This document shows positions 42,903 to 63,362 of a stretch of DNA of 64,000 nucleotides, piece after piece. Both the position numbers and the translations under genes were made by a program. Below the pieces are notes generated by a model. The model saw only the letters and a list, made by a program, of their open reading frames with translations. It was not told the DNA's origin and made no database searches. The number at the start of each line of letters is the position of its first letter. Position 1 is the first letter of the stretch. This stretch comes from Candidatus Latescibacterota bacterium (GTDB lineage: Bacteria; Latescibacterota; UBA2968; UBA8231): positions 1,056,001 to 1,120,000 of the forward strand of contig CBDCSU010000006.1 of the NCBI GenBank assembly GCA_965221775.1, written 5' to 3'.

Positions 42903-42977
42903 GCTCCCATCGTCTAACGGTCAGGACTCCAGATTTTCAATCTGGCAACCGGGGTTCGACTCCCCGTGGGAGCACCA
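42903..42977 (+). tRNA. tRNA-Glu (TTC)
   Basis: Acceptor stem GCTCCCA/TGGGAGC, anticodon arm CCAGA-TTTTCAA-TCTGG, T-loop GGTTCGACTCC, encoded CCA. Confidence 0.97.
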
Positions 42978-44820: not shown

Positions 44821-45534
44821 ATGGCGTCAAAGTCCCAAGTTCTAGAGGAGTTTTCTCTTTTCTCAGTCCCGACAGGGGGTATCGGCAGTTGGTTGACGAA
44901 GGATACTCATGACGATGTCTTCGCCCGCCTCGCAAAGATCAGTGAGCATCCGCTGCCTGCTGGGCAACTGAACCAACTGTTGGTCCTTGCACATGAAGCA
45001 CCCGTTAGCGACGGATTCTTTGAGTACTACTGGCTCAAGGCGCCCGAACAGCACTGCTACGACGTGCGAGATCTCCCCGGCTATTCCGAAGACTTCCTTG
45101 CTTCAGGGAGTTTCATTACCTCTCTATCTCATCTGAAGTGGGGGCTCTACCGCCTGTATGTCGATGGCCTTCTGTTCTTCGGGAACATCCGCTCCGCGTT
45201 TCACGGCCTTCGTGATCTGAGAGTGTGCGACCTAGAAGCGTTCTTCCGCGCTGAACGACTGGACACAGAGGCTATGAGGCAACGGGGTCCAACTCTGCCT
45301 TTGAAGTTGATTCCGAAGGACAGTCGGTATCTCATTTCGGAAATGGCATGCAAGTCTTACGGGGATACGCCTGGAGTAGAGGGTGATCTCGGAGAGTTCC
45401 TTCTCGAAGCCTATCGAAGACATGCTGCAGCGGGGAATCCCTCGCCAACGATTCGGCAGCTGTTGCATGAGGACGTTCCTGATGCGCGAGGTGGCCCTCT
45501 ACAACACGCAACAGTACCTCTCCGTGCTAAGTGA
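44821..45534 (+). CDS. Hypothetical protein; possibly the N-terminal half of a split gene
   Basis: Protein-like 237-aa ORF whose last ~20 codons overlap the next ORF in the +1 frame. Confidence 0.65.
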   Translation: MASKSQVLEEFSLFSVPTGGIGSWLTKDTHDDVFARLAKISEHPLPAGQLNQLLVLAHEAPVSDGFFEYYWLKAPEQHCYDVRDLPGYSEDFLASGSFITSLSHLKWGLYRLYVDGLLFFGNIRSAFHGLRDLRVCDLEAFFRAERLDTEAMRQRGPTLPLKLIPKDSRYLISEMACKSYGDTPGVEGDLGEFLLEAYRRHAAAGNPSPTIRQLLHEDVPDARGGPLQHATVPLRAK

Positions 45535-46144
45535 ACTCGATGTCTATGTTGCCACTAGTATGAGGACGCGAGAAGACTTCCGGAAAATGGCCGATACTTG
45601 CCAGACGATTTTCTCTAGTCCCGAACTGAAGAAGATGCATCTTCGCCACTTCGATCCGACGCTCAGTGCCGCCGCGGGACACGAAGACAAAGGACTGATC
45701 GAGTGTCTGATGGTGAAGTGCGCCAAGGTCCTTGTATATTGCGCTGGAGAGAAGGAGAGCTACGGAAAAGACGCAGAGGCGGCGATGGCACTGAGTCTTG
45801 GAAAGCCAGTGATCTTCTACTCCGACCAAGAGCAGCGAAGCAGATTTTATCGCGATGTGCATCCGCTGAGTCGTCTCATTGAGTTTGAAACTGGTGTGGC
45901 GGTTGGAGCAATGGTAACGGACAGTCCTGAGGAGGTCTCGCAGCTTCTTTGCAGGATTTTCCAGAACCGGATGGAGTATCGCCTTGAACAGCCGAAGCGC
46001 GGCTTTCTACGCCTCAAGGAGAAGCTAACTGACTCGGTTGTTCGTCTCCAGACGGATGACCAGCTTCTTAGCGAAGCATTCTGGAATCACTATCACAGAG
46101 AAGAGAAGAGGGCTAAGAGAGGTGTGGGAGGAAACTACGGGTGA
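45482..46144 (+). CDS. Nucleoside 2-deoxyribosyltransferase (NDT)-like Rossmannoid domain protein
   Basis: DVYVATSMR, FDPT, AKVLVY, SYGKDAEAAMALSLGKPVIFY resembles the NDT SxGTxxExGxAxALGKPV pattern. GAGGA lies 8 nt before ATG 45482. Confidence 0.6.
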   Translation: MREVALYNTQQYLSVLSELDVYVATSMRTREDFRKMADTCQTIFSSPELKKMHLRHFDPTLSAAAGHEDKGLIECLMVKCAKVLVYCAGEKESYGKDAEAAMALSLGKPVIFYSDQEQRSRFYRDVHPLSRLIEFETGVAVGAMVTDSPEEVSQLLCRIFQNRMEYRLEQPKRGFLRLKEKLTDSVVRLQTDDQLLSEAFWNHYHREEKRAKRGVGGNYG

Positions 46145-46604: not shown

Positions 46605-47123
46605 ATGACAGATCGATCTCTTACAGACTGCAAGCGACGGCTGCTCGTTCTGTCTTGCTCGCGCCGGAAACGGGTGTCCGAGCGACCCATGCCGGCGATC
46701 GAGCGATACAATGGACCGCTATTCTTGACCTTGCGTCGCTTCCTGCGTATCTGTCCAGAGGGAGCGGGGCCGCTAGACATTTACGTCTTGTCGGCCGCCC
46801 ATGGGCTTATCCCCGGAGGGAAGCCAATCAAGTGGTATGATCGGAGAATGGACTTGAGAAGAGCGATTGAGTTGCAGCCCTCGGTCAAGAGAGCATTCTC
46901 AGAACTCCTACGGAACAACAGCTATTGCTCAATGTGCTTGGCACTCGGAAGGCTGTACTCTAGGGCGCTTGATGACTGGCAAGAGCTGATTCCATCAGAT
47001 GCGGAATGCACAATCGCTAAGGGTCCCTTAGGAGCAAAGGCCCGCGAGCTGAAGAGGTGGCTAAACGGCCCAGAAATAGAGCCACTGCAACAATTGCAGG
47101 AGCAACCAAATGGTCCGCATTGA
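46605..47123 (+). CDS. DUF6884/YaaA-like protein
   Basis: LVLSCSRRK, PAIERYNGPLF, YVLSAAHGLI, WYDRRM. Confidence 0.7.
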   Translation: MTDRSLTDCKRRLLVLSCSRRKRVSERPMPAIERYNGPLFLTLRRFLRICPEGAGPLDIYVLSAAHGLIPGGKPIKWYDRRMDLRRAIELQPSVKRAFSELLRNNSYCSMCLALGRLYSRALDDWQELIPSDAECTIAKGPLGAKARELKRWLNGPEIEPLQQLQEQPNGPH

Positions 47124-47457
47124 AATATTGGAGATAGGACCGGGAGAAGATGAAGCAAAGACGAAGAGAAGAATCGAAATAGACGCAATTGACCCATCGC
47201 AAATACCTCCGGTAAACCAAAGAGCCGGCAGTCTGATCGCGATGCCCGAAATTGAGGGAATCATCGACGAAATCACTCCGATGGATCAGGGGGAGGATCA
47301 GGAGCTGTATTATGCGAGAAACGTGCCCGTTCTCGAAGATGGGAATCTGGCGCGGACTCCGCTAGATCTCCCACACCATACAGGCCTACGAGTTGTGCTA
47401 GAGAGTATTCTTAGGGAATATGGTACGCCGGATAACCTCCAGATACGCCTTAGCTGA
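47110..47457 (+). CDS. Small acidic hypothetical protein
   Basis: AGGAG RBS; overlaps the upstream stop; 115 aa. Confidence 0.7.
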   Translation: MVRIEILEIGPGEDEAKTKRRIEIDAIDPSQIPPVNQRAGSLIAMPEIEGIIDEITPMDQGEDQELYYARNVPVLEDGNLARTPLDLPHHTGLRVVLESILREYGTPDNLQIRLS

Positions 47458-47468
47458 AGGGGGCTTGT

Positions 47469-48575
47469 ATGGCGCAGATTCTATCTCTTGGGGAATTCAA
47501 GACAGCCGCCGGCAGACATCTGTGCAAAGGCACTTGGACTCTAGAATATCACGACCGAACGCATCTGCCAAGGGGTGCTTTCGTTGCTCTTGCAAGCATC
47601 GAGATCGAAGATGGAGGACCAGGTGGCAACTGGTTTTTTCGCTTCGAGCCCAAGTCGCACACTGGTCTCGCGAAGGGTTTCGAAGCCGCTGAGAAGCTCT
47701 TCAGCAAGGGAATGGAAGCGACGAAGGCGGCTAAGGTTAGCCTGGATCAAATCAGGGAGTCGTTGGTTCGAGTGGGTCTCCTACAGCCGCGCTTTGAAAT
47801 AGAGGGTTCTCACTCTCTGGAGTGTAGTCGGTTTGCGATTGTCATATTGGATACCAACGCGCTGCGAAGTGGCTCGGCCTACCATCTACAGGAGCAATTC
47901 CCCGATACTCGGATTTGGATGGTCGTTCCAAGTGTCACATTGATGGAAATTGGGGAGAGGCTTGCTAGTGTGGCAAGCAGAGATAGAGGGGGATGTAAGC
48001 CTCAGAACAGTGCTCTCCTCAGGACGCGGCCCCAGGTTACAATTGCGCCTGGGGAGATAATGAGGATAAGGGAGCAGTTCCCTGCAGAGACGTTAGAACT
48101 AGCTCCGGAGTTGCTCCGCGTCTTTCGGGGCTACGAGACGAGACATGGGGACAAGGAGCCTGATCGAGTCTCCATCAACGACCGGCTGATTCTGGAGAGC
48201 ATTAAGGATCTTCAGCGGCAGCGCAATGTGTCCTCGGGCGTGTACTTGATGTCCGGAGACAAGGATATTTCCCGGTTGGCTCATCTTGAAGGGATTCAGA
48301 CGATTTTTCCGGAAGTGCCAGACCTGGAAACGACGGGCATCTACTCAGTGCGGTACTCGTTAGAGTCTCGCGCACATGTGGTGTGCTCCATCTTCCGACT
48401 GCTGTGGGACTTGGCCCATGTCTTCAGTTGTATCCGGATGAGCAGAGATGGAGCGCCGGGCGGGGAGAGCGACTTGGCACTGTCCTACTACTACGAGTCA
48501 AAGCTGGTGAAGGATTGGGCAGACGACAAACTGGAGGTGCAAGTTGGACCCGGTTGTCCCAGCGACGCTGTTTAG
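47469..48575 (+). CDS. PIN-domain nuclease-like protein with N- and C-terminal extensions
   Basis: VILDTNAL, VVPSVTLMEI, SINDRLILE, LMSGDKDI (PIN acidic residues). Confidence 0.78.
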   Translation: MAQILSLGEFKTAAGRHLCKGTWTLEYHDRTHLPRGAFVALASIEIEDGGPGGNWFFRFEPKSHTGLAKGFEAAEKLFSKGMEATKAAKVSLDQIRESLVRVGLLQPRFEIEGSHSLECSRFAIVILDTNALRSGSAYHLQEQFPDTRIWMVVPSVTLMEIGERLASVASRDRGGCKPQNSALLRTRPQVTIAPGEIMRIREQFPAETLELAPELLRVFRGYETRHGDKEPDRVSINDRLILESIKDLQRQRNVSSGVYLMSGDKDISRLAHLEGIQTIFPEVPDLETTGIYSVRYSLESRAHVVCSIFRLLWDLAHVFSCIRMSRDGAPGGESDLALSYYYESKLVKDWADDKLEVQVGPGCPSDAV

Positions 48576-49383
48576 CGTCTTGGACAGGTTGGCAACAAGG
48601 ATGGGGCCTGTCCGAATAGCCGATCTGGAATCTACGCGCCGGTTCTCCAATCGGCGCTTCGCTGAAATTGGGAGAGTAATCGAGGGCCTCGGCCTTGCGC
48701 AGCGGGTAGGCCAAACGCTAGTACCGACTGGAGCGTTGGGACCCTTTGTTTCCTATTGGGAGCAAGGAGATCTTGATGGGATTAGCGGTTTCTTTCAACG
48801 ATATGTCCCGTACGACGCTTTCCGTGGATACCTGCAAGCGGAGAGATGCATTGCTCTGCCGCGGAAGGGCGAGCGAGGGGCACGGCGCAGGATGGGCAAA
48901 GAGTTGAGGTCCGGCGGCACCGGACTGACCTTCGTAGCTATTGATACCTTCAAGTGGTGGGGGATGGCGGTCGGGGAGGTGTATCTGTCGCCCTTCGGAG
49001 AGAGAGAGATCTACTGGGGTGGGGAGCGGCCCGCATTGGATGAGTTCGAAGCAATACTACAAGTTGAGTATGCGGAGATCCGGCCATTGGATGGGTTCGC
49101 GAACGTTGGGAGGCTGGCGGACCGTGTCTGCCGGCAGCTTTGCATTTCATTTCCGTGCTTTGAGAGGCTCTTCCTGGGACTGTGGCAGCGCCGGAGGTTT
49201 GCCACGGGGACATCCTTACAGCGCGGCCACCGAGGAAGAGGGGCGATACAGATCCTTCGGCCTCGGTCAGAAGCAAAGAGGCGCGGACTCCCGGTTGAGT
49301 GGACGGCTAAGCGTTTTGTGGAGGACGGTTTGGTGATCCATGGCCGGAGCGTTAAGGTGGTCAAACTTAGGCCAGGGCCTTAG
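48544..49383 (+). CDS. Hypothetical basic protein, probably with winged-helix domains
   Basis: GGAGG before TTG; IEGLGLAQR and FEAILQVEYAEI...VGRLADRVCRQLCISFPCFERLF patterns. Confidence 0.65.
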   Translation: MDPVVPATLFSVLDRLATRMGPVRIADLESTRRFSNRRFAEIGRVIEGLGLAQRVGQTLVPTGALGPFVSYWEQGDLDGISGFFQRYVPYDAFRGYLQAERCIALPRKGERGARRRMGKELRSGGTGLTFVAIDTFKWWGMAVGEVYLSPFGEREIYWGGERPALDEFEAILQVEYAEIRPLDGFANVGRLADRVCRQLCISFPCFERLFLGLWQRRRFATGTSLQRGHRGRGAIQILRPRSEAKRRGLPVEWTAKRFVEDGLVIHGRSVKVVKLRPGP

Positions 49384-49391
49384 GGACCCAA

Positions 49392-50624
49392 ATGGCAAGG
49401 AGGGCGATGCTTGTGGCTCGTTCAATTGGTGATCCAGATCTGGAGCAAATCCGGAGCGAGTTCAGTCAGGAGGTTCCTCGTAATCCGTACGAGGACTTCT
49501 TTCTGCTGGCGAATCCGTTTCCAGACCTTGGACAGTTCTGCGGGCTCTGCGTGAACCAAGAGTCGGTAAAGGCAGAATTCACCCGTGTACTTAGGGAACT
49601 GTACGGGGGATCGCAGTCCCGAGTGATGACCATACTGGGTAGCACAGGAGCGGGGAAGACGAATCTTCTACGGTTTCTCGAAGGGACACTGAAAGGCTGG
49701 AGAGAACCCGGTCCGGAGAGAAGAGCCATTACCGATCTGTTTACCGTGTTTGTTGAGCAGCCGCAGGGGAGCTACTTAGAAATGCACCGGCAGATCGTTG
49801 GTCAGTTGGGAGAGGTTTTCTTTAGCGAGTTCTTCACCAGAGTGCGTCGGGGCGAAGTTGACTTGGGGGAGCTATCTGAGGCATTGGGTGATGTGAACCC
49901 AGAATTGCTGCAAGCACTTCGGTACATTGCGGGGGCGGAGTCGGGACAACTGCCCTTGGGCGAACCGCGTTCGTACCGGCTGTTGGGCGACTGGTTGCAG
50001 GGCGGAAGGGTGGGGGTTGCGGAGAGGAGGAGACTGGGAAGCGTCTCCGCAGAGGTCGGAAGATCGGGTACCGTCGCCATTAGGTTTCTGTCAGACTTTG
50101 TTCGGGTCCTGTTGGAGGCGAAGCTTCTTAGGGGGTTAGTGATATTCGTCGATGAATTTGAGGAAGTGTTTTCCGGAGTGTCAGCGGCAAAGCAGGCGCA
50201 GTATGCTCAAGACTTGAGGAATTTGATCGATAGCCACCCGAAGGGAGTGGTCTTTGTCATCGGTACGGCACCGCTTGGTGAGCAACTGCAGAGTGTCTCG
50301 CCTCCCCTGCAGCGGCGTCTAGGAAGAGGGGTGGAGGTGGAGCCGATCGCGGATGAGAAGACTGCTCTGGAATACGCACAGGCGTACGTTGGGTGGGGTA
50401 GGGAGAGATTTGTGGAGGAGAGGCAAGTCCCGGTGTGTGTGCCAGAAGAGTGTGAGGAGAGAGACCAACCGTACTACCCGTTGTGTGAGGAGAGCGTGAA
50501 GGGAGTGTTCAGAGACCTGCAGGGGGAATTGGGATCCCAGGAGGTTGTGCCTGGTGACTTTCTTCCGGGGCTGAATTTTCTACTCTACAAGCGGGTCTAT
50601 GGAGAGGGGCGATGCGAGAGGTGA
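49392..50624 (+). CDS. P-loop ATPase (AAA+/BrxD-DpdH-like)
   Basis: NPF, Walker A GSTGAGKT, DWLQG, Walker B IFVDEFE, QDLRNLID, PLQRRL arginine finger. Confidence 0.85.
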   Translation: MARRAMLVARSIGDPDLEQIRSEFSQEVPRNPYEDFFLLANPFPDLGQFCGLCVNQESVKAEFTRVLRELYGGSQSRVMTILGSTGAGKTNLLRFLEGTLKGWREPGPERRAITDLFTVFVEQPQGSYLEMHRQIVGQLGEVFFSEFFTRVRRGEVDLGELSEALGDVNPELLQALRYIAGAESGQLPLGEPRSYRLLGDWLQGGRVGVAERRRLGSVSAEVGRSGTVAIRFLSDFVRVLLEAKLLRGLVIFVDEFEEVFSGVSAAKQAQYAQDLRNLIDSHPKGVVFVIGTAPLGEQLQSVSPPLQRRLGRGVEVEPIADEKTALEYAQAYVGWGRERFVEERQVPVCVPEECEERDQPYYPLCEESVKGVFRDLQGELGSQEVVPGDFLPGLNFLLYKRVYGEGRCER

Positions 50625-50645
50625 GGGGGGAGGGGGGAGGGGGGG
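50625..50645 (+). repeat. G-tract G6-A-G6-A-G7
   Basis: Read directly, starting right after the ATPase stop codon. Confidence 0.9.
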
Positions 50646-50762
50646 AGAGTTCGCCCAAGGATGGAGAGTTGAGTTGGTGGAATCGTGGCTTCATGTGTTC
50701 CGGCCCCGGCGGCTGGGAAGGAACGAGAAGTTGGCGTGGCTAGATTCTAGTGGCGATAGGGG

Positions 50763-51968
50763 ATGACCAAGGCTCTTCTATCGACCTTCGACGTGCCTGG
50801 GCTATTTGCTAGCTATCGGATCGGGGACTATCCGAGTGCTGGGCTACGTTGCCACCCGTGGAGGTTGACCCAGACGAAAGGGATATTGCTCAATGCGTTT
50901 GACCTACTGGCGAATAGGCGAACCCGGAAGTCTGTAGCCGAGATGCGAAGTGGCGGGGGGCACTTGCACGAGTACGTTGAATTTGATGGTCCCCTGATCC
51001 TTGACTCAGGAGCGTTTAATTTCCTGCGGCGGGAGGAACTGACCATATCGGCTAGTGAGGTCCTATCGATTGGGATTGAACTGGGTGCGGATGTGTCGGT
51101 TGTACTGGACCACCCATTCACGCCCACGACAGATAGTGATGAAGTTGAGAGGCGCTGGGCGAACACTGTGAGGAACACCCGGGAGATGTTTCGTGCGCTG
51201 GAGGGGGTCAACCCTTCTCTTCTTTCGGAGGGCTTTAGGCTGATACCAGTTGTCCACGGCCATAATGAAGAGAGTCTTTCGAAGGGCATAGAGGACATTA
51301 GGGAGATTCTGGGACGGGAGCCGGAGATCCTTGGAATCGGGAGCCTAGCACCGCTTGCGCTGAATGGCAGCAAACGTACGGTTGTAGAGGTCATTACGGA
51401 GACGAGGAGGCTATTGCCGAGTACGCACCTGCATTGTTTCTCGCTTGGTTCCGCGCTACTGATGCTCCTGGCCTTTTACTGCGGGGCAGACAGCGTTGAT
51501 TCGCAAACCTGGATGATGAGTGCTGCGTTCAAGCAAGTGCAATTGCCGGGCTTGCACCTGACCCGTTTCTCACGCCGTGAGGCTGAGAGGAATCCTGAAA
51601 GGTATGGACGGGATCGTGGGGTATTCGCCGACCACCTTGTCCGGCTTATTGGAGAGGAGAGTTTCTGCCCGAAGGATTGGGACACGGGAGAGGCTTGGCC
51701 AATCAGGGATGAGCGAGATGCGTTGGCATACATTGAGTATCTGGAAGATGGTCCGGGAGAGAACCATGTTCATCGACGCGCATGTCACAATTTGCATGTG
51801 TTCAACTTTGAGGCTGGCCGCGTTCGAAGGGAGATGAGTGTAGGCTCCCTCGATAGCTTCGTGGAAAGGCGTATCGAGGGAACGGTGTATCGAAGAGTGT
51901 GGGAATATGCACGTGAGAGGAAGGTGAGGAAGGGCACCCTAGGCGATTGCTATAGCGGGATTTCCTGA
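50763..51968 (+). CDS. tRNA-guanine transglycosylase (TGT)/DpdA-like protein
   Basis: LILDSGAF, VLDHP, IPVVHG, LGIGS, HLHCFSLG, GADSVDS and HNL in TGT order; no CxCxxC motif. Confidence 0.85.
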   Translation: MTKALLSTFDVPGLFASYRIGDYPSAGLRCHPWRLTQTKGILLNAFDLLANRRTRKSVAEMRSGGGHLHEYVEFDGPLILDSGAFNFLRREELTISASEVLSIGIELGADVSVVLDHPFTPTTDSDEVERRWANTVRNTREMFRALEGVNPSLLSEGFRLIPVVHGHNEESLSKGIEDIREILGREPEILGIGSLAPLALNGSKRTVVEVITETRRLLPSTHLHCFSLGSALLMLLAFYCGADSVDSQTWMMSAAFKQVQLPGLHLTRFSRREAERNPERYGRDRGVFADHLVRLIGEESFCPKDWDTGEAWPIRDERDALAYIEYLEDGPGENHVHRRACHNLHVFNFEAGRVRREMSVGSLDSFVERRIEGTVYRRVWEYARERKVRKGTLGDCYSGIS

Positions 51969-51983
51969 CGTGTATGTGTATTT

Positions 51984-52355
51984 TGTACAGTGACGGTAAT
52001 GACCTGACACTGCCCCTGCTCGGGGATGAGGGTAGCGGCGATTTTCTGCATGGCAGCCTCCTTGGCTCGGGGCTTGGTTGGGACCCCCTTCTTGAAAGCC
52101 TGCAGCGGCGTCAGGCCGTTCATGTTGCGGCCCTGGTGGGGGCGCTTCTCGTTGTACTGGACCAGGTAAGCATCCAGATCCTTCTGCATCGGGTCAATCG
52201 ACTCATACCAGGTCTTGCGGGCCCACGACGCGGAAGTGCCCGTCGAGAATGGTCCGGTGCAGTCGCTCCAAGAAGCCGTTGGTCTGGGGACTCTTCATCT
52301 TGGTGGTGCGGTGCTCGATCCCTTCCAGCTGCAGGAAGAACTCATAGGGATGCCG
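51984..52355 (-). mobile_element. IS481-family 3' fragment with frameshifted transposase
   Basis: HPYE, SPQTNGFLERLHRT, YNEKRPHQG; frameshift near 52220; end begins TGTACAGTGACGGTAATGACCTGACA at 51984. Confidence 0.82.
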
Positions 52356-52376
52356 AATTCGCGCAGTTAGGGAACA

Positions 52377-52815
52377 CGTAGGTACAAACCGGGTTGATGG
52401 TAACACTTCTGACCGGTTTGATGCGTGACACTCCCCGGTATCTTGGACCGACCCCCAAGCAGGAGGTTGGTCGATGCCGTGGATGGAGACCGCACCCGTG
52501 GAGCAGAGAGAGCGATTCATCGCTGATCATCGACCCGGTCACTTGACGATGACGGAGCTGTGCCGACGATACGGCATCAACCGCAGACGGGCTACAAGTG
52601 GCTTCGACGACACGCCGACGAGGGGCGGCCGGGCCTGCAGGACCGCAGCCATGCGCCGCACCACTGCCCCCACCGCCTGGAGCCGGAGATCGCCGGGCTG
52701 ATCCTCCGGGCGCGGCGACGGCATCCCGACTGGGGGCCTCGGAAACTGCTGACCTGGCTGACGTCCCGTCACCCGAGGATCTCGTCGTGGCCAGCGGTCA
52801 GCACGGCGGGCGATC
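52377..52815 (+). mobile_element. Second IS481-family element, 5' fragment with frameshift
   Basis: AGGAGG then MPWMET..EQRERF...TELCRRYGI, shift, TGYKWLRR..EG..GLQDRSHAPH...WGPRKL...PAVST. Repeated GTAACACT/GTGACACT motifs near the end. Confidence 0.82.
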
Positions 52816-52839
52816 CGAGACCGGCACAGGACCCTGAAT

Positions 52840-53094
52840 GACCGTATCGAGACGACATTCTTCGGCCAATCTCTGGACTTGGGAGCGTCTGGTATGGGCT
52901 ACACGCTCAACAATGACGGCGGGGGGCTGGGCAAGTTCAACGTCGGTGGATCGTTCGTGAATGGCGAGCCAGTGCTCGACGGGGAGTTTGAGTTGGCCCG
53001 CCGGCAGAAGATTGATGTCAGGCTCTCCAACCTCCAAGTGGCCTACTTGGTGAAGTATGGAGCGATCGCGGTCGGGTACATCCCCAAGCAGTGA
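52840..53094 (+). pseudogene. 3' remnant of an unknown gene truncated next to the IS fragment
   Basis: Protein-like frame DRIETTFFG...GYIPKQ* with no convincing start. Confidence 0.35.
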
Positions 53095-53760: not shown

Positions 53761-54598
53761 TGTGAGAAGTGAGCCAGCTGCGCCCATTCTGGACTACGGC
53801 ACATACCGCGGATACCGCGTGCCGGTCGCTGCCGCCCGGGACCTGTGTGAACGTGAAGGTCTGCCTCGACCACGCCGCCTGAAGCGGATCATGCGCGGCG
53901 AGGTGAATGCGTCGTCCCGTCTCGACTTTGACGATGCAGCTCCGCTGATACTCAAGGTCTGGGTCCGAACGTCGGACCCGGAGCGAATGCGGCATGCAGA
54001 GTCTGTCGCTCGCCAACTCCGGCAACTGACTGGTGTACCGACGCCTTCATGGAAGACTGCGGGCTCGTCTTGAGAGAGATGCACGAGTCCGGCATCGATG
54101 TCCCAGGTCCCGCGGACGCGCAGGCATGGGCCGATGAAGACCTCACCCGATTCGCCCACTCCGTTGAGCAGCTCAATGACCAGGCCTGGATCCAGAGCCA
54201 TGCTCGATCGAGCTGTGCGCTTGTGGAAGGGAAACTCGAGTCTGCTTCAGGAGGCAGGGGGACTGTCTTTCGTCCACTATGACTTCCAGCCACACAACCT
54301 CCGAGTCGAGCCTGTCTCCGGTCGAATCGTCTCGGTCCTCGATCTGGATAACAGTACGCGCGGCCCGGCGTTCTCGGATATCAGAGATCTCCTGCTGACG
54401 GTCTTCGTCCCGGATCCCGGTTCGGCAGAACCGTTCTGGCGGGCGTATGGCCCTGTGGATGAGCAGAGGAGACTGGTCTTGCGCCTGCACTCACTCGCTC
54501 GAGTGCTCGATGTCCTCCGGGCCTACGCAGGCCCCGCTCCAGGAGGATGGAACCACACCACAGTGGCGACCTTGCTTGAGGACATAGAGACGGCCTAG
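53761..54598 (+). pseudogene. Aminoglycoside-phosphotransferase/kinase-like pseudogene
   Basis: Three frames: GEVNA...LILKV; CGLVLREMH; FVHYDFQPHN...VLDLDN (Brenner-type motif). Confidence 0.75.
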
Positions 54599-54602: not shown

Positions 54603-56135
54603 TCAGAACGGCGTCCAGTTCGGATGCATGTCGTCGTGCGGATCCTCGGTCACCCGCACCTCCTCCCCGCCCTCGACGGGGATGATCCAGATGTCGTAGC
54701 GGATGTCCTGCTCCGACTGCCGCGCGAAGGCGATGCGGGTGCCGTCGGGGGACCAGGTGGGGTTGCTGTCCCAGGTCTCGGCGAAGGTCAGCTGCCGGGC
54801 GTTGGTGCCGTCGGCGGTCATGACATAGACGTGGCTGAACTCGTTGGCGGTGTCCGACAAGGTGTAGGCGATCCAGGCTCCGTCGGGCGACCACGAAGGA
54901 TGCCTCCCGCGCTGGCCTTCCGGCAGCGGCGAGAGGATTCCGCTGTCCGGGTCCAGGAGATGGATCCCCCAGGCCTCCTCCGGACCGGAGACACAGGCGA
55001 TGGACGAGCCGTCGGGGGACCACGCCGGCGAGTAGGCCCAAGGGGCGGCGGGCTCGGAGGTGAGCTGCTCCACGCCGCTGCCGTCGGCGTTCATGACGAA
55101 GATGTGGTCCGTCCCGGCCCGTTTCGACTCGAAGGCGATGCGCCGGCCGTCGGGGGACCAGGCGGGACTTGAGTCCCAGGCCTCGTGGCGGGTGAGGTTC
55201 ACCGGATCTCCGCCGTCGGCGTCCATGACGTAGATCTCCATGTTGCCGTCCCGGCGCGAGGTCAGGGCCACTCTCGTCCCGTCCGGCGACCGCGCCGGCT
55301 CCTCGCCGTTGCGCGTCTGGTAGTGTTGCTCCAGGGAGTCGGGCTCGGAGCCGTCGGAACGGGGGACGGCGGCCAGGACCGAACACAGGTTCACGACCTC
55401 GCCCGTCTCCAGGTCCAGAGAGTGCACCTCGAGACCGGACAGGTATCCACTCATCAGGCGGCGGTTCGAGGAGAACAGGAGCAGCGAGCTTCCCAGGGGA
55501 GGGCCGGGCCCCTCGGGCGGGACCACCTCCACGCTGTCCTCCGGCTCGGGCGCGGTGAACTCCACGGTCACGCCGCGCTCCCCCAGGGCCGCGAGCTGGG
55601 CCCGAGCCGCCTCGCTCAGCGGGTTGCCGGTGAGATCCACGCTCTGCAGGCTGTCGAGACCCGCGAGGTCCGACACCTCCGTCACCCCGTTGTCGGCCAG
55701 CAGCAGCACCCGCAGGCCCTTCAGCGACGCCAGGGCCGACACCTCCTCGACCCGGTTGGCCCCCAGGTCGAGGTAGCGCAACCGCCTCAGCCCGGCCAGC
55801 GGCGACAGATCCCGGATCTCGTTGCCGTACAGGTCCAGGACCTCCAGTCGCGTCAGCTGCTCGATGCCGCCCAGGTCGGCGATCCCCCGGTCCTTGGCCG
55901 TCAGCGAGACCAGTCCCGCCGCGTCGCCGGTCCCGCCCGCGGCCTGCTCCACCGCCGCCTGCAGGGCCGAGTCCGCGAAGGCCGGGGACGTGCCGACGCC
56001 GCCGGTGCCCCCGGGGTCGGGGTCCGGTCCGCTGGGGCCCTCCGGACCCGACCCGCAGGCGGCCAGGGCCAACACCGCCAGCATCGTGCCGCCGAGGATC
56101 TCCGCCGCCGTCCTGCCTGCCTTCGAAGGGTCCAT
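54603..56135 (-). CDS. Lipoprotein with internalin-like LRRs and TolB-like PD40 repeats
   Basis: Lipobox LAAC; LxxLdLxxNxI repeats; about five WSPDG-type repeats. Confidence 0.88.
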   Translation of the reverse strand: MDPSKAGRTAAEILGGTMLAVLALAACGSGPEGPSGPDPDPGGTGGVGTSPAFADSALQAAVEQAAGGTGDAAGLVSLTAKDRGIADLGGIEQLTRLEVLDLYGNEIRDLSPLAGLRRLRYLDLGANRVEEVSALASLKGLRVLLLADNGVTEVSDLAGLDSLQSVDLTGNPLSEAARAQLAALGERGVTVEFTAPEPEDSVEVVPPEGPGPPLGSSLLLFSSNRRLMSGYLSGLEVHSLDLETGEVVNLCSVLAAVPRSDGSEPDSLEQHYQTRNGEEPARSPDGTRVALTSRRDGNMEIYVMDADGGDPVNLTRHEAWDSSPAWSPDGRRIAFESKRAGTDHIFVMNADGSGVEQLTSEPAAPWAYSPAWSPDGSSIACVSGPEEAWGIHLLDPDSGILSPLPEGQRGRHPSWSPDGAWIAYTLSDTANEFSHVYVMTADGTNARQLTFAETWDSNPTWSPDGTRIAFARQSEQDIRYDIWIIPVEGGEEVRVTEDPHDDMHPNWTPF

Positions 56136-56241
56136 GAATCACCGTCCTTTGAGGAGTCCTCGTGAGCTATTGGCAAACGTGGACCTGGTCAAGCTCGGCG
56201 CTCCTTGACCCCGCCCCACGGCCGCGCCTGCTTGTGCCGCC

Positions 56242-57888
56242 ATGAGCTGGCCTCCGCGCATCATCCACAACACCGACGGGCACTGGATCATCAACTACCA
56301 GGACCGCCGCGAGCCCGGGGACATCGTCCGGCTGATACCCGTCCTCGCCGAGGCCGGGGTGGACGCCCTCTCGGTGCTGGCCGGCATCGACGACGACATC
56401 TCCTGGCGGGGCAGCCCGCACGCCCAGCTCTACGGCGACCACATCACCGAGTGGCAGCCGGACCCGGTTCCCCGGGACATCCACGGTCACCCGCTCAAAG
56501 CAGAGCAGGCGCCCCACATCCACGGGCGGCCGATCAAGGAGGTCGGGGGCCGCCGGCCGGCCGACGCCCACGAGTTCCTGCACCTGCTCCTCGACCAGGT
56601 GATCGCCGACGGCCACGAGCTGATGCAGATCTACATCGACGGCGCCCGCCGCAGCGGCCTGCCGATCTACGCCGGCTTCCGCATGAACGACGCCCACGCC
56701 TGCGACGAGGCCAGGGGCTGGTACGGGCGCTCGCGGCAGAAACAGGAGCGCCGCCACCTCCTCATCGGCTCGCCGGTGCCCTTCGGCTGCCGCCACGGCG
56801 CCGACTGGTCGTTCTCGTGGGTGTGGAACTACGCCGAGGAGGAGGTGAGGGAGCGCTTTCTCGGGCTCTTCGACGAGACCCTGGAGCGCTACGACTTCGA
56901 CGGACTGGAGCTGGACTTCAGCCGGGCGCCGCCGTTCTTCCGGACCGGCGAGAAGTTCGCCAACATCCCGGTCATGACCCGCTTCATGGGGCAGGCCCGG
57001 CAGCTGGTGGACCGCCGCGGCGCGGAGGCGGGGCGGGAACTCCGCCTGATCGCGCGGGTGCCCGCCGGCCTCGGTGAGTCGCTGGAAGAGGGGCTGGACG
57101 TGGAGACCTGGATCCGCGAAGGGCTGGCCGACGCGGTGGTGCTCGGCTCGCCGGGCTACTGCGTGCACGAGATCGACGTCGGCCCGGCGGCGGCCCTGGC
57201 CCGGGAGAGCGGCGTGGCGGTCTACACCGGGTTCGACACCAAGACCTACACGGCCTCACCCCAGGAGGGCTACGAGGAGAGCCCCGCCAGCGTGCTGCGG
57301 GCGGCGGCCCTCAACGGCTACCGGGACGGCGCCGCAGGCGTCCACCTCTTCAACTTCGGCTACCCCTCCCACCGCGCCGCGCCGGCCGCCAGCGGCGACT
57401 TCAACGACTTCGACGACTACCACCTGCGCATGGTGGCCGAGCTGCGCGACCCGGCGGTCCTGGAGCGGCGCAACCGCTGCTACTACCTGCCCGCGGCGGC
57501 CGGCCCCGACCACCGGCCGCAACTGCCGCGCAAGCTGGCCCTCGCCGGCCGCGGCGCCGGGCCGGAGCACGCCCTGCGGATCCGCGTCGACGACGACATC
57601 GAGGCGGGACTCGCCGAGGGGCGGATCGCCCGGTGCGAGCTGCGCCTGTGCCTGGAGGACTGCGAGGGGGCGGAGGGCCGCCTTCACCTAACCGTCAACG
57701 GCACGCGGCTGGACCCGTCTGCCGATCGAATCGTGGAGAGCAGCCGCGGCCGGCGCTGGAGGGTCTTCGACGGACCGCCCCTGCGCCGGGGGATCAACAC
57801 CGTGCTCGTCATCCTCGACGGCAGCCGTACGCCCTCGCCGTGGCCGCGCCTGGAGAGCTGCGAGATCCTGCTGCTGGCCCCCGACTGA
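56242..57888 (+). CDS. GHL10/DUF187-like TIM-barrel protein (paralog of 29081-30670)
   Basis: IIHNTDG, FRMNDAH, WNYAEEEVR, DGLELDF, GVHLFN. Confidence 0.72.
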   Translation: MSWPPRIIHNTDGHWIINYQDRREPGDIVRLIPVLAEAGVDALSVLAGIDDDISWRGSPHAQLYGDHITEWQPDPVPRDIHGHPLKAEQAPHIHGRPIKEVGGRRPADAHEFLHLLLDQVIADGHELMQIYIDGARRSGLPIYAGFRMNDAHACDEARGWYGRSRQKQERRHLLIGSPVPFGCRHGADWSFSWVWNYAEEEVRERFLGLFDETLERYDFDGLELDFSRAPPFFRTGEKFANIPVMTRFMGQARQLVDRRGAEAGRELRLIARVPAGLGESLEEGLDVETWIREGLADAVVLGSPGYCVHEIDVGPAAALARESGVAVYTGFDTKTYTASPQEGYEESPASVLRAAALNGYRDGAAGVHLFNFGYPSHRAAPAASGDFNDFDDYHLRMVAELRDPAVLERRNRCYYLPAAAGPDHRPQLPRKLALAGRGAGPEHALRIRVDDDIEAGLAEGRIARCELRLCLEDCEGAEGRLHLTVNGTRLDPSADRIVESSRGRRWRVFDGPPLRRGINTVLVILDGSRTPSPWPRLESCEILLLAPD

Positions 57889-57891
57889 GCA

Positions 57892-58335
57892 ATGCACGAG
57901 CTGAGTTGGGAGTTCTGCTGCGTCATCGACGCGCCGGTGGACGAGGTCTTCACGGCGATCACGGACAAGGACGCCATCAGCACCTTCTTCACCGACGCCT
58001 CGAGCGCTTCCCTCGAAGCCGGGCGCACCGTCCTGTGGCGGTTCGGCGATCTCGAGATCGACGTCCACGTCGAGGAGGTCGTCCCCGGCGAGCGGATCGT
58101 CTGCAACTGGCCCGCCTGCAACGACGTGGGCTATCGGACGCGCTTCACATTCGCCTTCGAGGCGCTGGGTGAGGGCACGAAGGTCGTCGTGAGCGAGTCC
58201 GGCTGGCGCGCCGATGGCGAGGGGACCGCCAGCGCCTTCGAGCAGTGTTCGGGTTGGACCCACTTCTTCGCCAGCCTCAAGGCCCGTCTCGAGCACGGCG
58301 TCGACCTGAAGCGCTTCTACTGCGACGGCGGCTGA
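57892..58335 (+). CDS. SRPBCC/AHSA1-like protein
   Basis: IDAPVDEVF, GTKVVVSESGW, GWTHFFASLKARLE. Confidence 0.85.
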   Translation: MHELSWEFCCVIDAPVDEVFTAITDKDAISTFFTDASSASLEAGRTVLWRFGDLEIDVHVEEVVPGERIVCNWPACNDVGYRTRFTFAFEALGEGTKVVVSESGWRADGEGTASAFEQCSGWTHFFASLKARLEHGVDLKRFYCDGG

Positions 58336-58341
58336 GGCGGG

Positions 58342-58722
58342 TCAGCCCTCCGTCAGGATGGCGTACGCCTCGATCTCGACCCGCAGTTGGGGCCTCCCCA
58401 GGGCCGCCACCTGCACCAGCGTCGACGCCGGCTTGACGTCGGCGAAGCGCTCGTGGTGGGCCCGGGCGACCTCCTTCATGTCCGAGATGTCGGTCACGTA
58501 GACCACCGTCCTCACCACGTCCTCGATGCGCGCCCCCGCCTCGGCCAGGGCCGCGGCGATGATGTCGAGTGCGGCAACCGACTGCTCGTAGGTGCCTCCC
58601 TCGTCGTGGGGCGGGCGGGCGCAGGTGCCGGCCACGTGGACGTGGTCGCCGACGCGCACCGCCCGCGAGTAGCCGTACTCCTCCTCGAAGGGGTTGTTGC
58701 TCGATATGTTCCGCCGTTCCAT
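58342..58722 (-). CDS. RidA/YjgF family protein
   Basis: GYSRAVRVG, VAGT, DVVRT, PAST, VEIEA. Confidence 0.9.
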   Translation of the reverse strand: MERRNISSNNPFEEEYGYSRAVRVGDHVHVAGTCARPPHDEGGTYEQSVAALDIIAAALAEAGARIEDVVRTVVYVTDISDMKEVARAHHERFADVKPASTLVQVAALGRPQLRVEIEAYAILTEG

Positions 58723-58734
58723 GGATCTCCTCTT

Positions 58735-61161
58735 CTACTTCATCAGCATCATCTTGCGCATCGCCGCGTGGCCGGGCTGCACCAGGCGATACAGGTAGAC
58801 GCCCGTTCCCACGGCGCGGCCGTCGTCGTCGGTGCCGTCCCAGGAGTATACGTGGTCCCCGGGGACGAGGCCTTCCCACGCCTCGACGAGCACCCGCCGC
58901 CCGGTCAGGTCGTAGATCTCCAGGCGCACCGGCTGCGGGCCGAATCCGCCGGCGACGGTGATGCGGATGGTGGTCTCCGCGTTGAAGGGGTTCGGCGTGT
59001 TCTGGTGCAGCACCGCGGTCTCCGGCAGGGCCGGCCCCCGCAGCCGCCAGGCCTGTCCCTCGGCGACGACGATCATCTCCTTCTGGAGGGAGGCGAAGCT
59101 CTCGAGCTCAGCCGGCGCGGCCAGCGCGGTGGCGTGCTCCATCACCGGATCGCCGGGGGTGTACTCGGAGTCGATCCACACGCCATCGCTCAGGTGGAAG
59201 TCTCTGTCGAACCAGGAGGCGGTGGCAAGCACCTCCTCGATCCCGGTGGTGGCATAGCCACCGCCGCCGCCCACCGCCTCGTCGGAGACCCCCTGGGGCA
59301 GGGGCACGGGCTGCCCCACGCTGACCACCTCGGTGCCGTCGTTGCGCACCACCCGGTCGACGGCGACGAAGGAGGTGTAGGCGGTGAGCAGGTTGTAGGT
59401 CAGGCCCAACTCCAGGATGTGGCTCTTCACCCTGTCCTCCAACCCCAATCCCGCGTAGTCGCCCAGGGTGGCGATGAGCCGGCGCGCCCAGAGATAGCGC
59501 AGGGCCGAGTTGGACTCCTCGGGCGTCACCTCGGAGACGTCGATGTCGATGCCGTACTCGCCCTGTCCCGTATGCCCTCGCAGCGACACCGTGCCCTGGC
59601 GATCGCCCCGCCACTTCCCGTAGACCAGGACCGGGCGCTCCGCCAGCAGGTCCGGGATGGAGACCGGCTCCACCTCGTAGATATCGAAGCCCTCGGCGGA
59701 GAAGGTCGTCCCCGAGAGGACCGGCGTGCGGATGTACTCCCGGAACCGGTTCGCGGTCTCCTGCGCCTCGGACTCCTCGGTGACGACGAAGGGCTCGCCC
59801 GAACCCATGCGGGCCATGCCCTCGATGAGGAAGCGGTTGACGCCGGAGCCGATGCCGAAGGCGAAGACGTTGGCATCGCCGAGGTTTTCCCGGATCAGGT
59901 CGAAGACCCGCGCCTCCACCGTGATGTACCCGTCGGTGGCGATCACGATGGAACGGGATGTCGTCTCGCCTGGCCGGGGCAGATCGATGGCCCGACGGAG
60001 GGCCTGCGAGAGCCGGGTCCCGCCCCCGCCTTGCTGGCCATCGATGACTTCGAGAGCCCGCTCCACGTTCTCGCTCGACGCGGGGAGGGACTCCGGGGAG
60101 AGCACGCTGGAACCGTAGGCGAAGAGCAGCACGTTGAAGTGATCGGTGGGGCGGAGCGGCTCGATCAGGTCTCTCAGCAGCGCCTTCGACACGTCCAGTG
60201 GATAGCCGTGCATCGAGCCGGAGACGTCGACGACGAAGATGTACTCCCTCGGGGGGATCTCGTCCTCGAGGACGCGCTCGGGCGGCTGACCCATGAAGAG
60301 GAAGAAGCTCTCCTCCTCGCCCTCCCCCTCGTAGAGCAGCAGGCCCGACTTGATCTGGTCGCCCGCCAGCCGGTAGCGCAGGATGTAGTCCCGGTTGCCC
60401 CCGGTCCCGCCCGGATCGGACAGCTCGACCACGGCCCGGTTGGGCTCGGGATAGGTGACCTCGATGTCGTGGGAGATCGAAGAGAGGGACTGGATCGGCA
60501 CCCCCGTCCTCAGCTCCACGTCGATGTCGAAACCGTAGATCGCCGGCTCCCCCTCGCGGGTGTACGGCGACGCCACGAACAGGTCCCTGTGGTCGACCTC
60601 GGCCAAGGGGATCTCGGAGTACCGCGGCCCGACGACGGTGGGATAGACGAACTCGTACTCGCCCTTCGTGGGCACCAGGGTCTCGGTGTATCTCAACTCG
60701 ACGAGGATCCGGTCCCCCGGCAGGATGTTACCCAACGTCATCTGGAAGACGTTGGGCCTCTGCTGCTCCAGGAGCGAGGCCGTGTAGCCCTCTTCGATCG
60801 CCTCCTCGTACTCCTGCCGCGCCTCCTCCCGTTCCCGGATCTCGGCGGTGACGACCCGCTCGCCGATGGTCATCTCCATCCCGTACACGGCCGCCTGCGT
60901 GGAGGCGGGGAAGACGTAGGTCGCCTCCAGGGGCTTGCCGCCTTCGTTGGCGTACTCCTGGCGGATCACCACGTCGGCGATGACCCCGGCGATCCGGACG
61001 CTGGCCGAGATCGACTTCATCGGCAGCTGATCCAGCTCCGGATCGTCGGTCTCGACGAAGAAGAAGGGGGAGAGGGTTTGCTCCGGCTCCGGGAACTCGT
61101 CCCCCGAGCTGTGGGAGATGAACAACGCGGGCAATAGCAGGCAGAGAATGCGGATCAGCAT
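58735..61161 (-). CDS. Secreted VIT + vWA domain protein with FlgD-Ig/sorting tail
   Basis: Signal peptide; VIT (EATYVFP), MIDAS DVSGSM, TDG; C-terminal NTPNPFN...YDLTGR...WDG...GVY. Confidence 0.88.
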   Translation of the reverse strand: MLIRILCLLLPALFISHSSGDEFPEPEQTLSPFFFVETDDPELDQLPMKSISASVRIAGVIADVVIRQEYANEGGKPLEATYVFPASTQAAVYGMEMTIGERVVTAEIREREEARQEYEEAIEEGYTASLLEQQRPNVFQMTLGNILPGDRILVELRYTETLVPTKGEYEFVYPTVVGPRYSEIPLAEVDHRDLFVASPYTREGEPAIYGFDIDVELRTGVPIQSLSSISHDIEVTYPEPNRAVVELSDPGGTGGNRDYILRYRLAGDQIKSGLLLYEGEGEEESFFLFMGQPPERVLEDEIPPREYIFVVDVSGSMHGYPLDVSKALLRDLIEPLRPTDHFNVLLFAYGSSVLSPESLPASSENVERALEVIDGQQGGGGTRLSQALRRAIDLPRPGETTSRSIVIATDGYITVEARVFDLIRENLGDANVFAFGIGSGVNRFLIEGMARMGSGEPFVVTEESEAQETANRFREYIRTPVLSGTTFSAEGFDIYEVEPVSIPDLLAERPVLVYGKWRGDRQGTVSLRGHTGQGEYGIDIDVSEVTPEESNSALRYLWARRLIATLGDYAGLGLEDRVKSHILELGLTYNLLTAYTSFVAVDRVVRNDGTEVVSVGQPVPLPQGVSDEAVGGGGGYATTGIEEVLATASWFDRDFHLSDGVWIDSEYTPGDPVMEHATALAAPAELESFASLQKEMIVVAEGQAWRLRGPALPETAVLHQNTPNPFNAETTIRITVAGGFGPQPVRLEIYDLTGRRVLVEAWEGLVPGDHVYSWDGTDDDGRAVGTGVYLYRLVQPGHAAMRKMMLMK

Positions 61162-61413
61162 GGTGTGCCTCCCAGGCAGTCGCGGAGACGGCTGTGACCG
61201 TGCCGCATGTGGCGGGCTGGCATAGCCCCGATACCTGCCTGGGAAGGGAACGCAAGAAGCGTGCCCTCAGGTTCTCACCGCGTCATCTCTCGACTGGCCC
61301 TTCCAGTTTCCTGGACAACCAGTCCCTTACAGGCCGGACTCGTCCGGTTTCCCGGACAGGTACGGCGCGAGCGCGCACGAACCGGAGGCCCGAGGCGCCC
61401 GAAGACTGGTGAT

Positions 61414-61797: not shown

Positions 61798-61805
61798 GGT
61801 TCCTC

Positions 61806-62435: not shown

Positions 62436-62594
62436 GATGGGCTCCGTCGAGGTTGGCCGGCGCGCCCTCCCCGGAGGAGGCGAAGCGGCCCCCTGCAGCT
62501 TCAGGGAATGAAGCCTCTCCCTCCCTGTCGGTAGAGGCAGAGTGGGAATATACTCGTCGAGGCCCGAAGGCGTTTCCGCCACCCGGACAGGCAG

Positions 62595-63272: not shown

Positions 63273-63362
63273 GGTCCGGCAGGACCACCACCTTGACCCT
63301 GGCGCCGGCGAGGCGCTTCTATCTCCCGCCGCATCTCCCCCAACCCAGGAGGATCGATCATC

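Follow-up and report, generated by a model that had tools for sequence, protein, structure and literature searches.

A 64,000-nt window of the genome of a Candidatus Latescibacterota bacterium (GenBank assembly GCA_965221775.1, contig CBDCSU010000006.1, positions 1,056,001 to 1,120,000) carries at its positions 50763–51968 (plus strand) an open frame, g8, for a 401-residue protein of the tRNA-guanine transglycosylase (TGT) superfamily. This gene is the last of a conserved six-gene cassette (g3 to g8), which is kept in 18 of 20 related loci from six or more bacterial lineages. The cassette is our main result, and it was absent from the initial annotation of the window. 7-Deazaguanine in DNA is known from Dpd islands and phage DpdA enzymes, and DpdA is the DNA preQ0 transglycosylase of the bacterial Dpd system, where it works with the ATPase DpdB and with DpdC. 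By sequence comparison, the cassette appears to be an undescribed Dpd-like system with a new clade of zinc-less TGTs and different helper proteins. By analogy, we give about an even chance to g8 being a DNA guanine/7-deazaguanine exchange enzyme that would mark host DNA in a compact Dpd-like modification–restriction system.

A conserved six-gene cassette

The six genes form a tight plus-strand array with g8 at its end. They encode, in order, a 172-residue DUF6884 protein assigned to the YaaA/DpdC clan by profile matches (g3, 46605–47123), a small protein of 115 residues that belongs to no known family (g4, 47110–47457), a PIN-like nuclease of 368 residues whose match to PIN_4 lies at about the cut-off (g5, 47469–48575), a 279-residue protein that matches no Pfam, NCBIfam or PADLOC family (g6, 48544–49383), an AAA+ ATPase of 410 residues whose best named matches are to BrxD at ~1e-6 (g7, 49392–50624), and the TGT protein. 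A scan of the cassette with PADLOC v2 returned only weak pieces, from the models DpdA, BrxD and PDC-M57A. We found no description of the cassette in the literature or in PADLOC v2, although the supplementary tables of BRIGADE, BRC and GATOR-GC could list it.

A pattern scan with one genome per species gave 20 loci, which come from Latescibacterota (5), Poribacteria (9) and Anaerolineae (2), together with Chloroflexia, Aggregatilineales, Pyrinomonadaceae and Saccharibacteria. Searching these loci with tblastn recovered the ATPase in 19 and g6, the PIN protein and the DUF6884 protein in 18 each; order and strand are constant in all loci that have cassette genes, and the TGT is always last. All-against-all clustering of the neighbouring proteins agrees with this conservation, and shows that the slot of the small protein is occupied by one of two unrelated types. 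Three loci are exceptional: in L006 the contig ends just upstream, in L001 a DDE transposase stands at the DUF6884 position, and in L016 (Saccharibacteria, 4044–10115) the DUF6884 and TGT genes are followed by genes for a 614-residue protein of no family, a HerA-type ATPase and a nucleoside 2-deoxyribosyltransferase. The match of the last of these has E=3.7e-21, and the DUF6884 protein of this locus has a C-terminal extension.

The flanks vary by locus. An HNH endonuclease occurs in 5 loci and a PAPS-reductase-type protein in 4, and other flanking genes encode a DUF1156 N6-adenine methyltransferase, a GIY-YIG protein and a transposase. The HNH_2 endonuclease or the PAPS-reductase-type protein often lies directly upstream of DUF6884 (L005, L011–L014, L019), and DUF6884 genes stand next to genes of the PAPS-reductase family on many alphaproteobacterial and Burkholderia plasmids.

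The TGT protein retains the catalytic residues of its superfamily

The protein g8 matches the Pfam TGT family PF01702 over residues 38–258 with 68.4 bits (cut-off 26.3) and the superfamily model TIGR00449 with 54.5 bits (cut-off 47.6), and by these comparisons its membership in the TGT superfamily is a matter of homology, not chance. Its best sequence match in the PDB is 1iq8, the archaeosine TGT of Pyrococcus horikoshii (E=4.2e-10, or 3.6e-13 by family profile). An AlphaFold2 model (mean pLDDT 75.6, pTM 0.77) points to the same structure: the top 50 Foldseek hits are all TGTs, and the best is 1iq8_A (E=1.3e-12, TMq 0.66).

Seven motifs in canonical order had been reported from the bare sequence, and a scripted search located every one of them: DSGAF (residues 81–85, 51003–51017), LDHP (115–118, 51105–51116), PVVHG (162–166, 51246–51260), GIGS (191–194), HCFSLG (224–229), DSVDS (243–247, 51489–51503) and HNL (342–344, 51786–51794), all on the plus strand. 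The claim that the catalytic aspartates are kept is borne out by a HMMER alignment, which places D81, D116 and D246 on the active-site residues D95, D130 and D249 of 1iq8, and H342 on H307, a histidine of its zinc site. More than 370 relatives of g8 were found, and in a family alignment of 23 sequences, 57–65% identical to g8, the 95 invariant positions include the three aspartates, F85, G193 and the pair H342–N343.

For Salmonella DpdA, PMC10164549 describes Asp95 and Asp256 as essential, Asp130 and His181 as reading the base, and Phe99 as stacking on it. We compared the relevant columns in an alignment of 67 sequences, composed of 15 family members, 36 unnamed distant relatives, 2 archaeal TGTs above the TgtA cut-off, the Tgt of the source genome, 7 DpdAs, 4 haloarchaeal plasmid TGTs, a second Nostoc TGT and an Aulosira plasmid TGT; the DpdAs are 6 from the same phylum (338–352 bits with the DpdA model NF041059, cut-off 200) and an annotated Nostoc plasmid DpdA. 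Counting the spacing to the GG loop by hand, we place His181 of Salmonella DpdA in the column of g8 H165. The initial annotation had pointed to a His in place of Gln here, and the alignment agrees, since the position is held by Gln in the Tgt of the same genome, in one of the two archaeal TGTs (Gly in the other) and in the DpdAs of this phylum. His165 is common to the family, to all 36 sampled distant relatives and to the 4 haloarchaeal plasmid TGTs, and the same is true of Ser194, the last residue of GIGS, in a column that has Gly in the Tgt and DpdA rows and in one of the two archaeal TGTs. The divergent family representative P0127 departs from both, with Gln at 165 and Gly at 194. The Gly that follows His165 is variable among the relatives.

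No PUA or other C-terminal tRNA-binding domain was detected in g8, for which only the TGT family was matched in Pfam at E<=0.1. In one related locus (L047, G092:C1:1758344-1759486) the TGT homologue crosses one in-frame TGA in the protein search, whereas the profile search gives a stop-free frame of 406 residues; a frameshift, an alignment effect or recoding are possible.

Loss of the zinc site is specific to the family

In the initial annotation g8 was said to lack the CxCxxC zinc site and to have a charged segment in its place, and here script and alignment agree. The six cysteines of g8 (at 30, 225, 240, 302, 341 and 396) form no CxCxxC, and the segment in place of the zinc knuckle (residues 262–336, 51546–51770, plus strand) is charged and, by prediction, mainly helical, with 17 D/E and 11 K/R among its 75 residues (28 charged) and modelled helices at 271–276, 278–299 and 317–327.

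Among the rows of the 67-sequence alignment displayed for the zinc region, CxCxxC is present in 13 of 13 from outside the family (4 unnamed relatives, 2 haloarchaeal plasmid TGTs, the Aulosira TGT, 2 archaeal TGTs, 3 DpdAs and the Tgt of the source genome) and in none of the 3 family rows, which include the most divergent family representative. Because the aligned outgroup rows keep CxCxxC, the loss of the zinc site is, on this alignment, derived and specific to the g8 clade. The His-Asn pair that follows the zinc region is found in 66 of the 67 rows, with N-Q in the second Nostoc TGT. Two residues beside it mark the family: every one of the 15 family rows has H337 and no other row does, and C341 occurs in 14 of the 15 and in only one relative outside. 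C341 and C225 are the sole invariant cysteines of the 23-sequence alignment. A partial precedent is the DpdA of phage 9g, for which PMC5699537 reports that two of the four zinc ligands are not conserved.

g8 is separate from the housekeeping Tgt and from DpdA

That g8 is not a housekeeping queuine Tgt had been proposed on the basis of its motifs, and three lines of evidence now point the same way: the genome has a separate canonical tgt, g8 scores below the equivalog cut-offs, and it forms part of a separate clade in the tree. The source genome (5.36 Mb in 6 contigs) encodes the canonical enzyme at G000:C6:2012633-2013724, which in a genome scan scores 543.6 bits with PF01702 vs 58.1 for the island gene. 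This Tgt has the motifs expected of it (DSGG, VQG, DMFDC and CGCPTC...HNL), and the archaeal TGTs and DpdAs have FDS after the nucleophile, as had been remarked. The host genome further holds two copies of queC, a QueD-type gene, queF and a queE-like gene, the last below the equivalog cut-offs, as is also the case in most control genomes; the check for a separate tgt and for queCDE that was suggested at the outset thus has an answer. With the equivalog models, g8 reaches 26.3 bits for bacterial Tgt (TIGR00430, cut-off 306.75), 74 bits for TgtA (TIGR00432, cut-off 350) and 28.8 bits for DpdA (NF041059).

We built a quick-search maximum likelihood tree (LG+G4, 375 columns) with support from the Shimodaira–Hasegawa-like approximate likelihood ratio test (SH-aLRT), in which the g8 family forms a single clade (100), nested in a larger clade (100) that also takes in the unnamed relatives and the Aulosira protein. 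That larger clade is separate from DpdA (100), from the haloarchaeal plasmid TGTs (94) and, when the tree is rooted on bacterial Tgt, from the archaeal TGTs (97), so g8 does not branch within the sampled tRNA Tgt/TGT or DpdA rows.

Partner proteins

All 19 members of the cassette DUF6884 family match PF21818, and 18 of them also match PF03883 (YaaA). The protein g3 carries the motifs CxxxK (C18, K22) and LSAxxG (L62-S63-A64, G67), which are conserved in the family and are named as DUF6884 motifs in the Pfam update paper (PMC11701544). The literature contains the wordings 'DpdC (DUF328; Pfam PF03883)' (PMC12839542) and 'DUF6884, e.g., dpdC' (PMC11888242). Canonical DpdA was searched for DUF6884 in 5 genomes of the phylum, and in all 5 its open frame also contains a DUF6884 match, directly N-terminal of the DpdA domain; a 715-residue Nostoc plasmid DpdA (L031:6870-9014) also includes a DUF6884 part. 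The fusion proteins are ~580–594 residues long (L036–L041, L056–L061). Comparison of the cassette DUF6884 family with the DpdA-fused domain gives a profile–profile probability of 99.8% (E=1e-29), and g3 itself is 36% identical to that domain by BLASTP (E=1e-19); on this evidence from sequence, g3 is homologous to the domain that is fused N-terminally to canonical DpdA. NCBIfam has no named model for either. Five DUF6884 proteins (L007, L009, L016, L017, L018) have a conserved C-terminal extension of ~90 residues (…SPKW…LTG.P…F…EAR..L.QLG), and one extended member has a weak match to the N-terminal domain of the restriction enzyme AspBHI (E=0.013).

The ATPase g7 has Walker A (G83, A87-G88-K89-T90) and Walker B (D254-E255) residues that are invariant in 17 sequences. 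Its named relative BrxD is described as a stand-alone ORC/Cdc6-type AAA+ ATPase (PMC12839542). The four acidic positions that an active PIN domain should have (D128, E160, D238 and D264 in g5) are likewise invariant in 17 sequences. All of 4 further homologues match PIN_4, 2 with scores above the cut-off, and a protein atlas points to archaeal PIN_4 clusters of equal length. The model of g6 is confident (pLDDT 86.9) and consists of repeated helix-helix-helix-strand-strand units; its Foldseek matches are weak, with one at E<=0.001 and TM ~0.2, and include UFL1, SelB, AlkX/YcaQ and MarR or IclR regulators, and from this model g6 is a putative tandem winged-helix nucleic-acid binder. A predicted complex of the TGT, g6 and residues 28–330 of g7 had a score of 0.00 and a mark of 0.32, and was not used as evidence.

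Two further identities with Dpd proteins were considered and set aside. As DpdG, g6 had as its lead a DpdG-like cluster in the atlas at 0.81 only, and the NCBIfam and PADLOC scans were empty. As DpdH, g7 would be expected to match NF041065, a model of 1014 positions, which matched nothing in five DpdA-carrying genomes.

Relatives in other contexts

The Haloarcula plasmid pHsi139 (L033, 2416–10908) has genes for a 344-residue TGT, a 293-residue protein and a protein annotated 'BREX system ATP-binding', with overlapping stops and starts, and within 6 kb of this trio are QueE, a QueD-type gene, an EVE-domain protein and a PD-(D/E)xK nuclease. The ATPase is similar to g7 (BLASTP 1e-16, profile 1.7e-27) and the TGT to g8 (5e-18), whereas for the 293-residue protein BLASTP shows no similarity to g6 and a small search with the g6 profile gives 8.3e-6. 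A 969-residue protein nearby shows weak DUF6884 and TGT profile matches. On a Haladaptatus plasmid, genes for a helicase, a PLD protein, DUF6884, a TGT and an ATP-binding protein form a single operon, an arrangement that fits the Dpd-like systems of BRIGADE. On the Aulosira plasmid, the DUF6884 and TGT genes stand at opposite ends of a ten-gene array that includes a predicted exonuclease.

An unnamed sister clade was sampled at 80 metagenome loci (L063–L142), and a TGT open frame that matches the profile was found as the terminal gene of the operon in 76 of these. The proteins are ~350–390 residues long, keep CxCxxC and have His at the Gln position. We had expected the sister clade to share the cassette, but upstream of its TGT we found a NurA-type protein (37 loci), a HerA-type ATPase (45), a protein of ~1400 residues (56) and DUF5591 (47, plus 14 short), so that the operon reads NurA, HerA, large protein, DUF5591, TGT. 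The operon appears to represent either a further undescribed DNA-directed system or a HerA-centred one that already has a name. Across the wider clade, every context that we found is built on DNA-handling machinery and none is tRNA-related; the partners vary.

The cassette lies on a low-GC island and is patchily distributed

The description of the surrounding DNA as an island is upheld by its guanine-plus-cytosine (GC) content, which is 0.557 over 46605–51968 vs 0.716 over 1–42000 and 0.696 over 55000–64000, and by a tRNA-Glu (UUC) gene (42903–42977, plus strand) at the left edge of the low-GC region. This tRNA gene may be the integration site. No direct repeat matching its end was found, only chance-level short repeats at the island ends, and no integrase was found at the island; the island borders are therefore set by GC content only. 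Just downstream of g8 are broken pieces of an IS481-type transposase (51950–52841; rve_3 fragments on the minus strand, HTH_32/LZ_Tnp_IS481 on the plus strand). Together with a fragment of an APH-type phosphotransferase (54098–54598 region), they form the right side of the island, and the first high-GC gene beyond it (54603–56135, minus strand) encodes a protein of 510 residues in which PD40 beta-propeller repeats come after leucine-rich repeats.

Upstream of the cassette, the island carries g1 and g2 (44821–46144, plus strand), which are probably separate cargo, as they lie beside the cassette in none of the 20 related loci. The protein g2 belongs to a large unnamed family with 688 relatives at E<=1e-3, the best 120 of which are 63–82% identical to it; some of the relatives reach ~440 residues, which suggests fused forms. 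Its Pfam hints are weak (SLOG cluster 4, E=0.019; nucleoside deoxyribosyltransferase, E=0.067), and it has no BLASTP similarity to the nucleoside 2-deoxyribosyltransferase of the Saccharibacteria locus, with which we had compared it.

Within Latescibacterota the g8 family is present in 6 of 168 genomes, the source genome included, and in none of 9 other genomes of the genus; a profile search adds one fragment, and one genome of the phylum has both the g8 family and a canonical DpdA. The cassette is thus mobile and patchily spread. No relative of g8 was found in 2.9 million viral contigs, and a phage origin, for which 50,697 phage records were searched with tblastn, is set aside: the search returned 5 Sulfolobus virus records only, at 27–28% identity over 48% of the query.

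Comparison with known systems

The likeness to DpdA comprises the TGT fold, the Asp triad, F85 at the position of the stacking residue Phe99, a His at the position of Salmonella His181 by our spacing count, the location on a genomic island, and an operon shared with a DUF6884/YaaA-clan protein and with an ATPase. The DpdC-type partner that is linked to DpdA is present, as DUF6884 is co-operonic in 18 of the 20 loci. Unlike DpdA, g8 lies below the NF041059 cut-off, in a separate clade, and has no CxCxxC, and unlike Dpd the cassette has neither the helicases nor the PLD nuclease of DpdD-K and has a PIN-like nuclease instead.

Compared with TgtA, of which 1iq8 is its best match in both sequence and structure and with which it shares DSG, LD.P, FDS and HNL, g8 differs in its 401 residues without C1, C2 or PUA domains, in His for Gln, in GxGS for the GG loop, in the absence of CxCxxC and in being bacterial and island-borne. 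The haloarchaeal plasmid TGTs share His-Gly and G-x-G-S with g8, but keep CxCxxC and form a separate branch. The trio of pHsi139 resembles the cassette in having homologues of the TGT, g6 and g7, there beside queD and queE, and the Haladaptatus operon shows that a haloarchaeal cluster of BRIGADE type combines DUF6884, a TGT and an ATP-binding protein as the cassette does. BRIGADE is defined by YprA helicases with PLD or PD-(D/E)xK nucleases and has been reported from halophilic archaea alone (bioRxiv 10.1101/2025.09.15.676423), whereas our cassette has none of these genes, with no helicase or PLD match, and its hosts are bacterial.

In BREX-Related Capture (BRC) with GNAT and TGT, a TGT homologue occurs in an ATPase-centred predicted defence operon and DNA marking has been proposed (PMC12839542). 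The cassette is similar in joining a TGT homologue to a BREX-related ATPase operon. BRC, however, needs HerA/FtsK, PglZ, DUF6079, a STAND NTPase and DUF4007, and has no DpdC homologues (PMC12839542), whereas the window cassette matches no BRC core gene in Pfam, PADLOC or NCBIfam and has a DpdC-type protein. The TIM-B family PF14350 was not matched in the window cassette at E<=0.1, and no QueC-like or CD-NTase partner and no toxin dyad was found in it. The PADLOC model 'TGT' does not match g8 at E<=0.1 and matches one homologue at E=0.006 only. By these sequence comparisons, g8 falls outside Tgt, TgtA and DpdA, and the cassette falls outside Dpd, BRIGADE, BRC, type IV CBASS and TIM-B.

Discussion

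The gene context of g8 favours DNA as the target, since the enzyme is accompanied by a DUF6884/DpdC-type protein and a predicted nuclease, and also by an ATPase of ORC/BrxD-like type and a putative winged-helix protein. From this context, and by analogy with Dpd, we infer that the substrate is DNA, which base is used, what each partner does and that the system serves in defence. D246 of g8 would attack C1' of a guanine nucleotide in DNA with D81 as general acid/base, by analogy with DpdA and the tRNA TGTs, and the guanine would be swapped for a 7-deazaguanine precursor, most simply preQ0, supplied by the que genes of the host. In place of the zinc knuckle, which pins the C-terminal insertion in all other TGTs, g8 has the charged segment, by prediction mostly helical, with H342 retained and the family-specific H337 and C341 alongside it. 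The ATPase and the putative winged-helix protein g6 may provide ATP-dependent handling of DNA, as the ParB-like DpdB does for DpdA, the DUF6884 protein may act on the inserted base or on a flipped or abasic site, as DpdC does in Dpd, and the PIN-like nuclease may restrict unmarked nucleic acid. The fully specified version of this scheme, a 'mini-Dpd' as a so far unnamed defence system, is one we hold tentatively and place somewhat below an even chance: zinc-less TGTs would write a 7-deazapurine or another unusual base into host DNA with the help of the BrxD-like ATPase and the putative winged-helix protein, DUF6884 would mature the base, and the PIN protein would destroy unmarked invaders.

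Several observations weigh against host-DNA marking. The substrate is read from the gene neighbours alone, and the tRNA enzymes are thinly sampled in the tree, with 1 bacterial Tgt row and 2 archaeal TGT rows. There are no que genes in the window cassette and none among the conserved neighbour clusters of the 20 loci. The sister clade belongs to another operon, and its loci are nearly without DUF6884 (2 weak matches) or a g7-type ATPase (1 match). The canonical DpdAs of Latescibacterota have Gln in the His165 column, so that His is not a general mark of DpdA. The ATPase g7 is AAA+/BrxD-like, not ParB-like as DpdB is, and the likeness between the two is one of function only, not of homology; none of the 8 island proteins has a ParB/DndB-type match in Pfam, PADLOC or NCBIfam. 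In DpdA the zinc site, lost in g8, pins the substrate-binding insertion, and the confidence of the g8 model is low at 251–267 and 331–338. For bacterial DpdA the Zn site CxCx2Cx22H is stated to be conserved in the family (PMC10164549), and its loss might therefore change or abolish the activity of g8.

The same genes could be read in other ways. The TGT could attack invading DNA, removing guanine or phage 7-deazaguanine and leaving an abasic site or a covalent enzyme–DNA adduct. Processing of this lesion would fall to DUF6884 and the PIN nuclease, in a defence of the type IV or glycosylase style. The intact Asp triad and a cassette without que genes fit such an attack, the DUF6884 member YfjM is placed among proteins that bind abasic and RNA-base lesions (PMC11701544), and defence glycosylases against 7-deazaguanine phage DNA have been described (bioRxiv 10.1101/2025.10.29.685425). 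We consider it unlikely, given that the characterised TGT and DpdA enzymes all complete the exchange and do not stop at excision, in the accounts of PMC5699537 and PMC10164549, that DUF6884 is fused to genuine DpdA, a modifying enzyme, and that the Haloarcula relative adjoins queD and queE. A TGT that transfers a deazaguanine-type base to a protein, or makes a soluble product, and so restrains the PIN effector until infection is less probable again, and we think it quite improbable. A precedent has been proposed for type IV CBASS and TIM-B (bioRxiv 10.64898/2026.10.19.760177) and the same is described for QueC-family proteins (PMC13639016), and here the variable small protein g4 and the nuclease could be the regulated targets. 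The cassette has no QueC-like or CD-NTase gene, however, PF14350 and the PADLOC TGT model are silent, and the link between DUF6884 and DpdA points to DNA.

An RNA target would make the TGT an enzyme that alters or damages tRNA or other RNA, of the host or of a phage, with the PIN protein as the RNase in a mechanism of the abortive-infection type. PIN_4 members are mostly ribonucleases, and this nuclease fits an RNA-directed system equally well, which counts against host-DNA marking as well as for RNA. Winged-helix arrays also bind RNA, as the SelB matches of g6 illustrate, and the closest sequence models of g8 are those of archaeal tRNA TGT (74 bits; 1iq8). On the other side, g8 has no detected PUA or tRNA-binding extension at E<=0.1, the family lies outside the tRNA TGT rows of the tree, the DUF6884/DpdC and ORC/BrxD-type ATPase partners are DNA-associated, and the host already has a canonical tgt, so that we rate an RNA target as improbable, a little below an attack on invading DNA. 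The least likely reading by far, to which we give almost no weight, is a decaying or redundant paralogue of tRNA Tgt with no function of its own. The island setting beside broken transposase genes and the lost zinc site speak for it, but the frame is intact, 95 positions are invariant in 23 sequences, more than 370 relatives exist and gene order is kept across phyla; a decaying gene would not show purifying selection and a conserved operon.

If g8 does mark host DNA, it would represent a new family of DNA base-exchange enzymes and the cassette a new modification–restriction architecture, spread across the candidate phyla Latescibacterota, Poribacteria and Saccharibacteria and across Chloroflexota, and would widen the set of routes by which organisms hypermodify their own DNA. 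It would also mean that the TGT fold can function when the zinc subdomain is missing, a part that all solved TGT and DpdA structures use to pin the substrate-binding insertion, and the six-gene system would be compact enough for transfer into E. coli. The poorly understood DUF6884 is tied to DNA base exchange twice, by its natural fusion to DpdA and by the cassette operon. Since most of the hosts belong to uncultured lineages, modifications of their DNA could bear on sequencing and on cloning from them.

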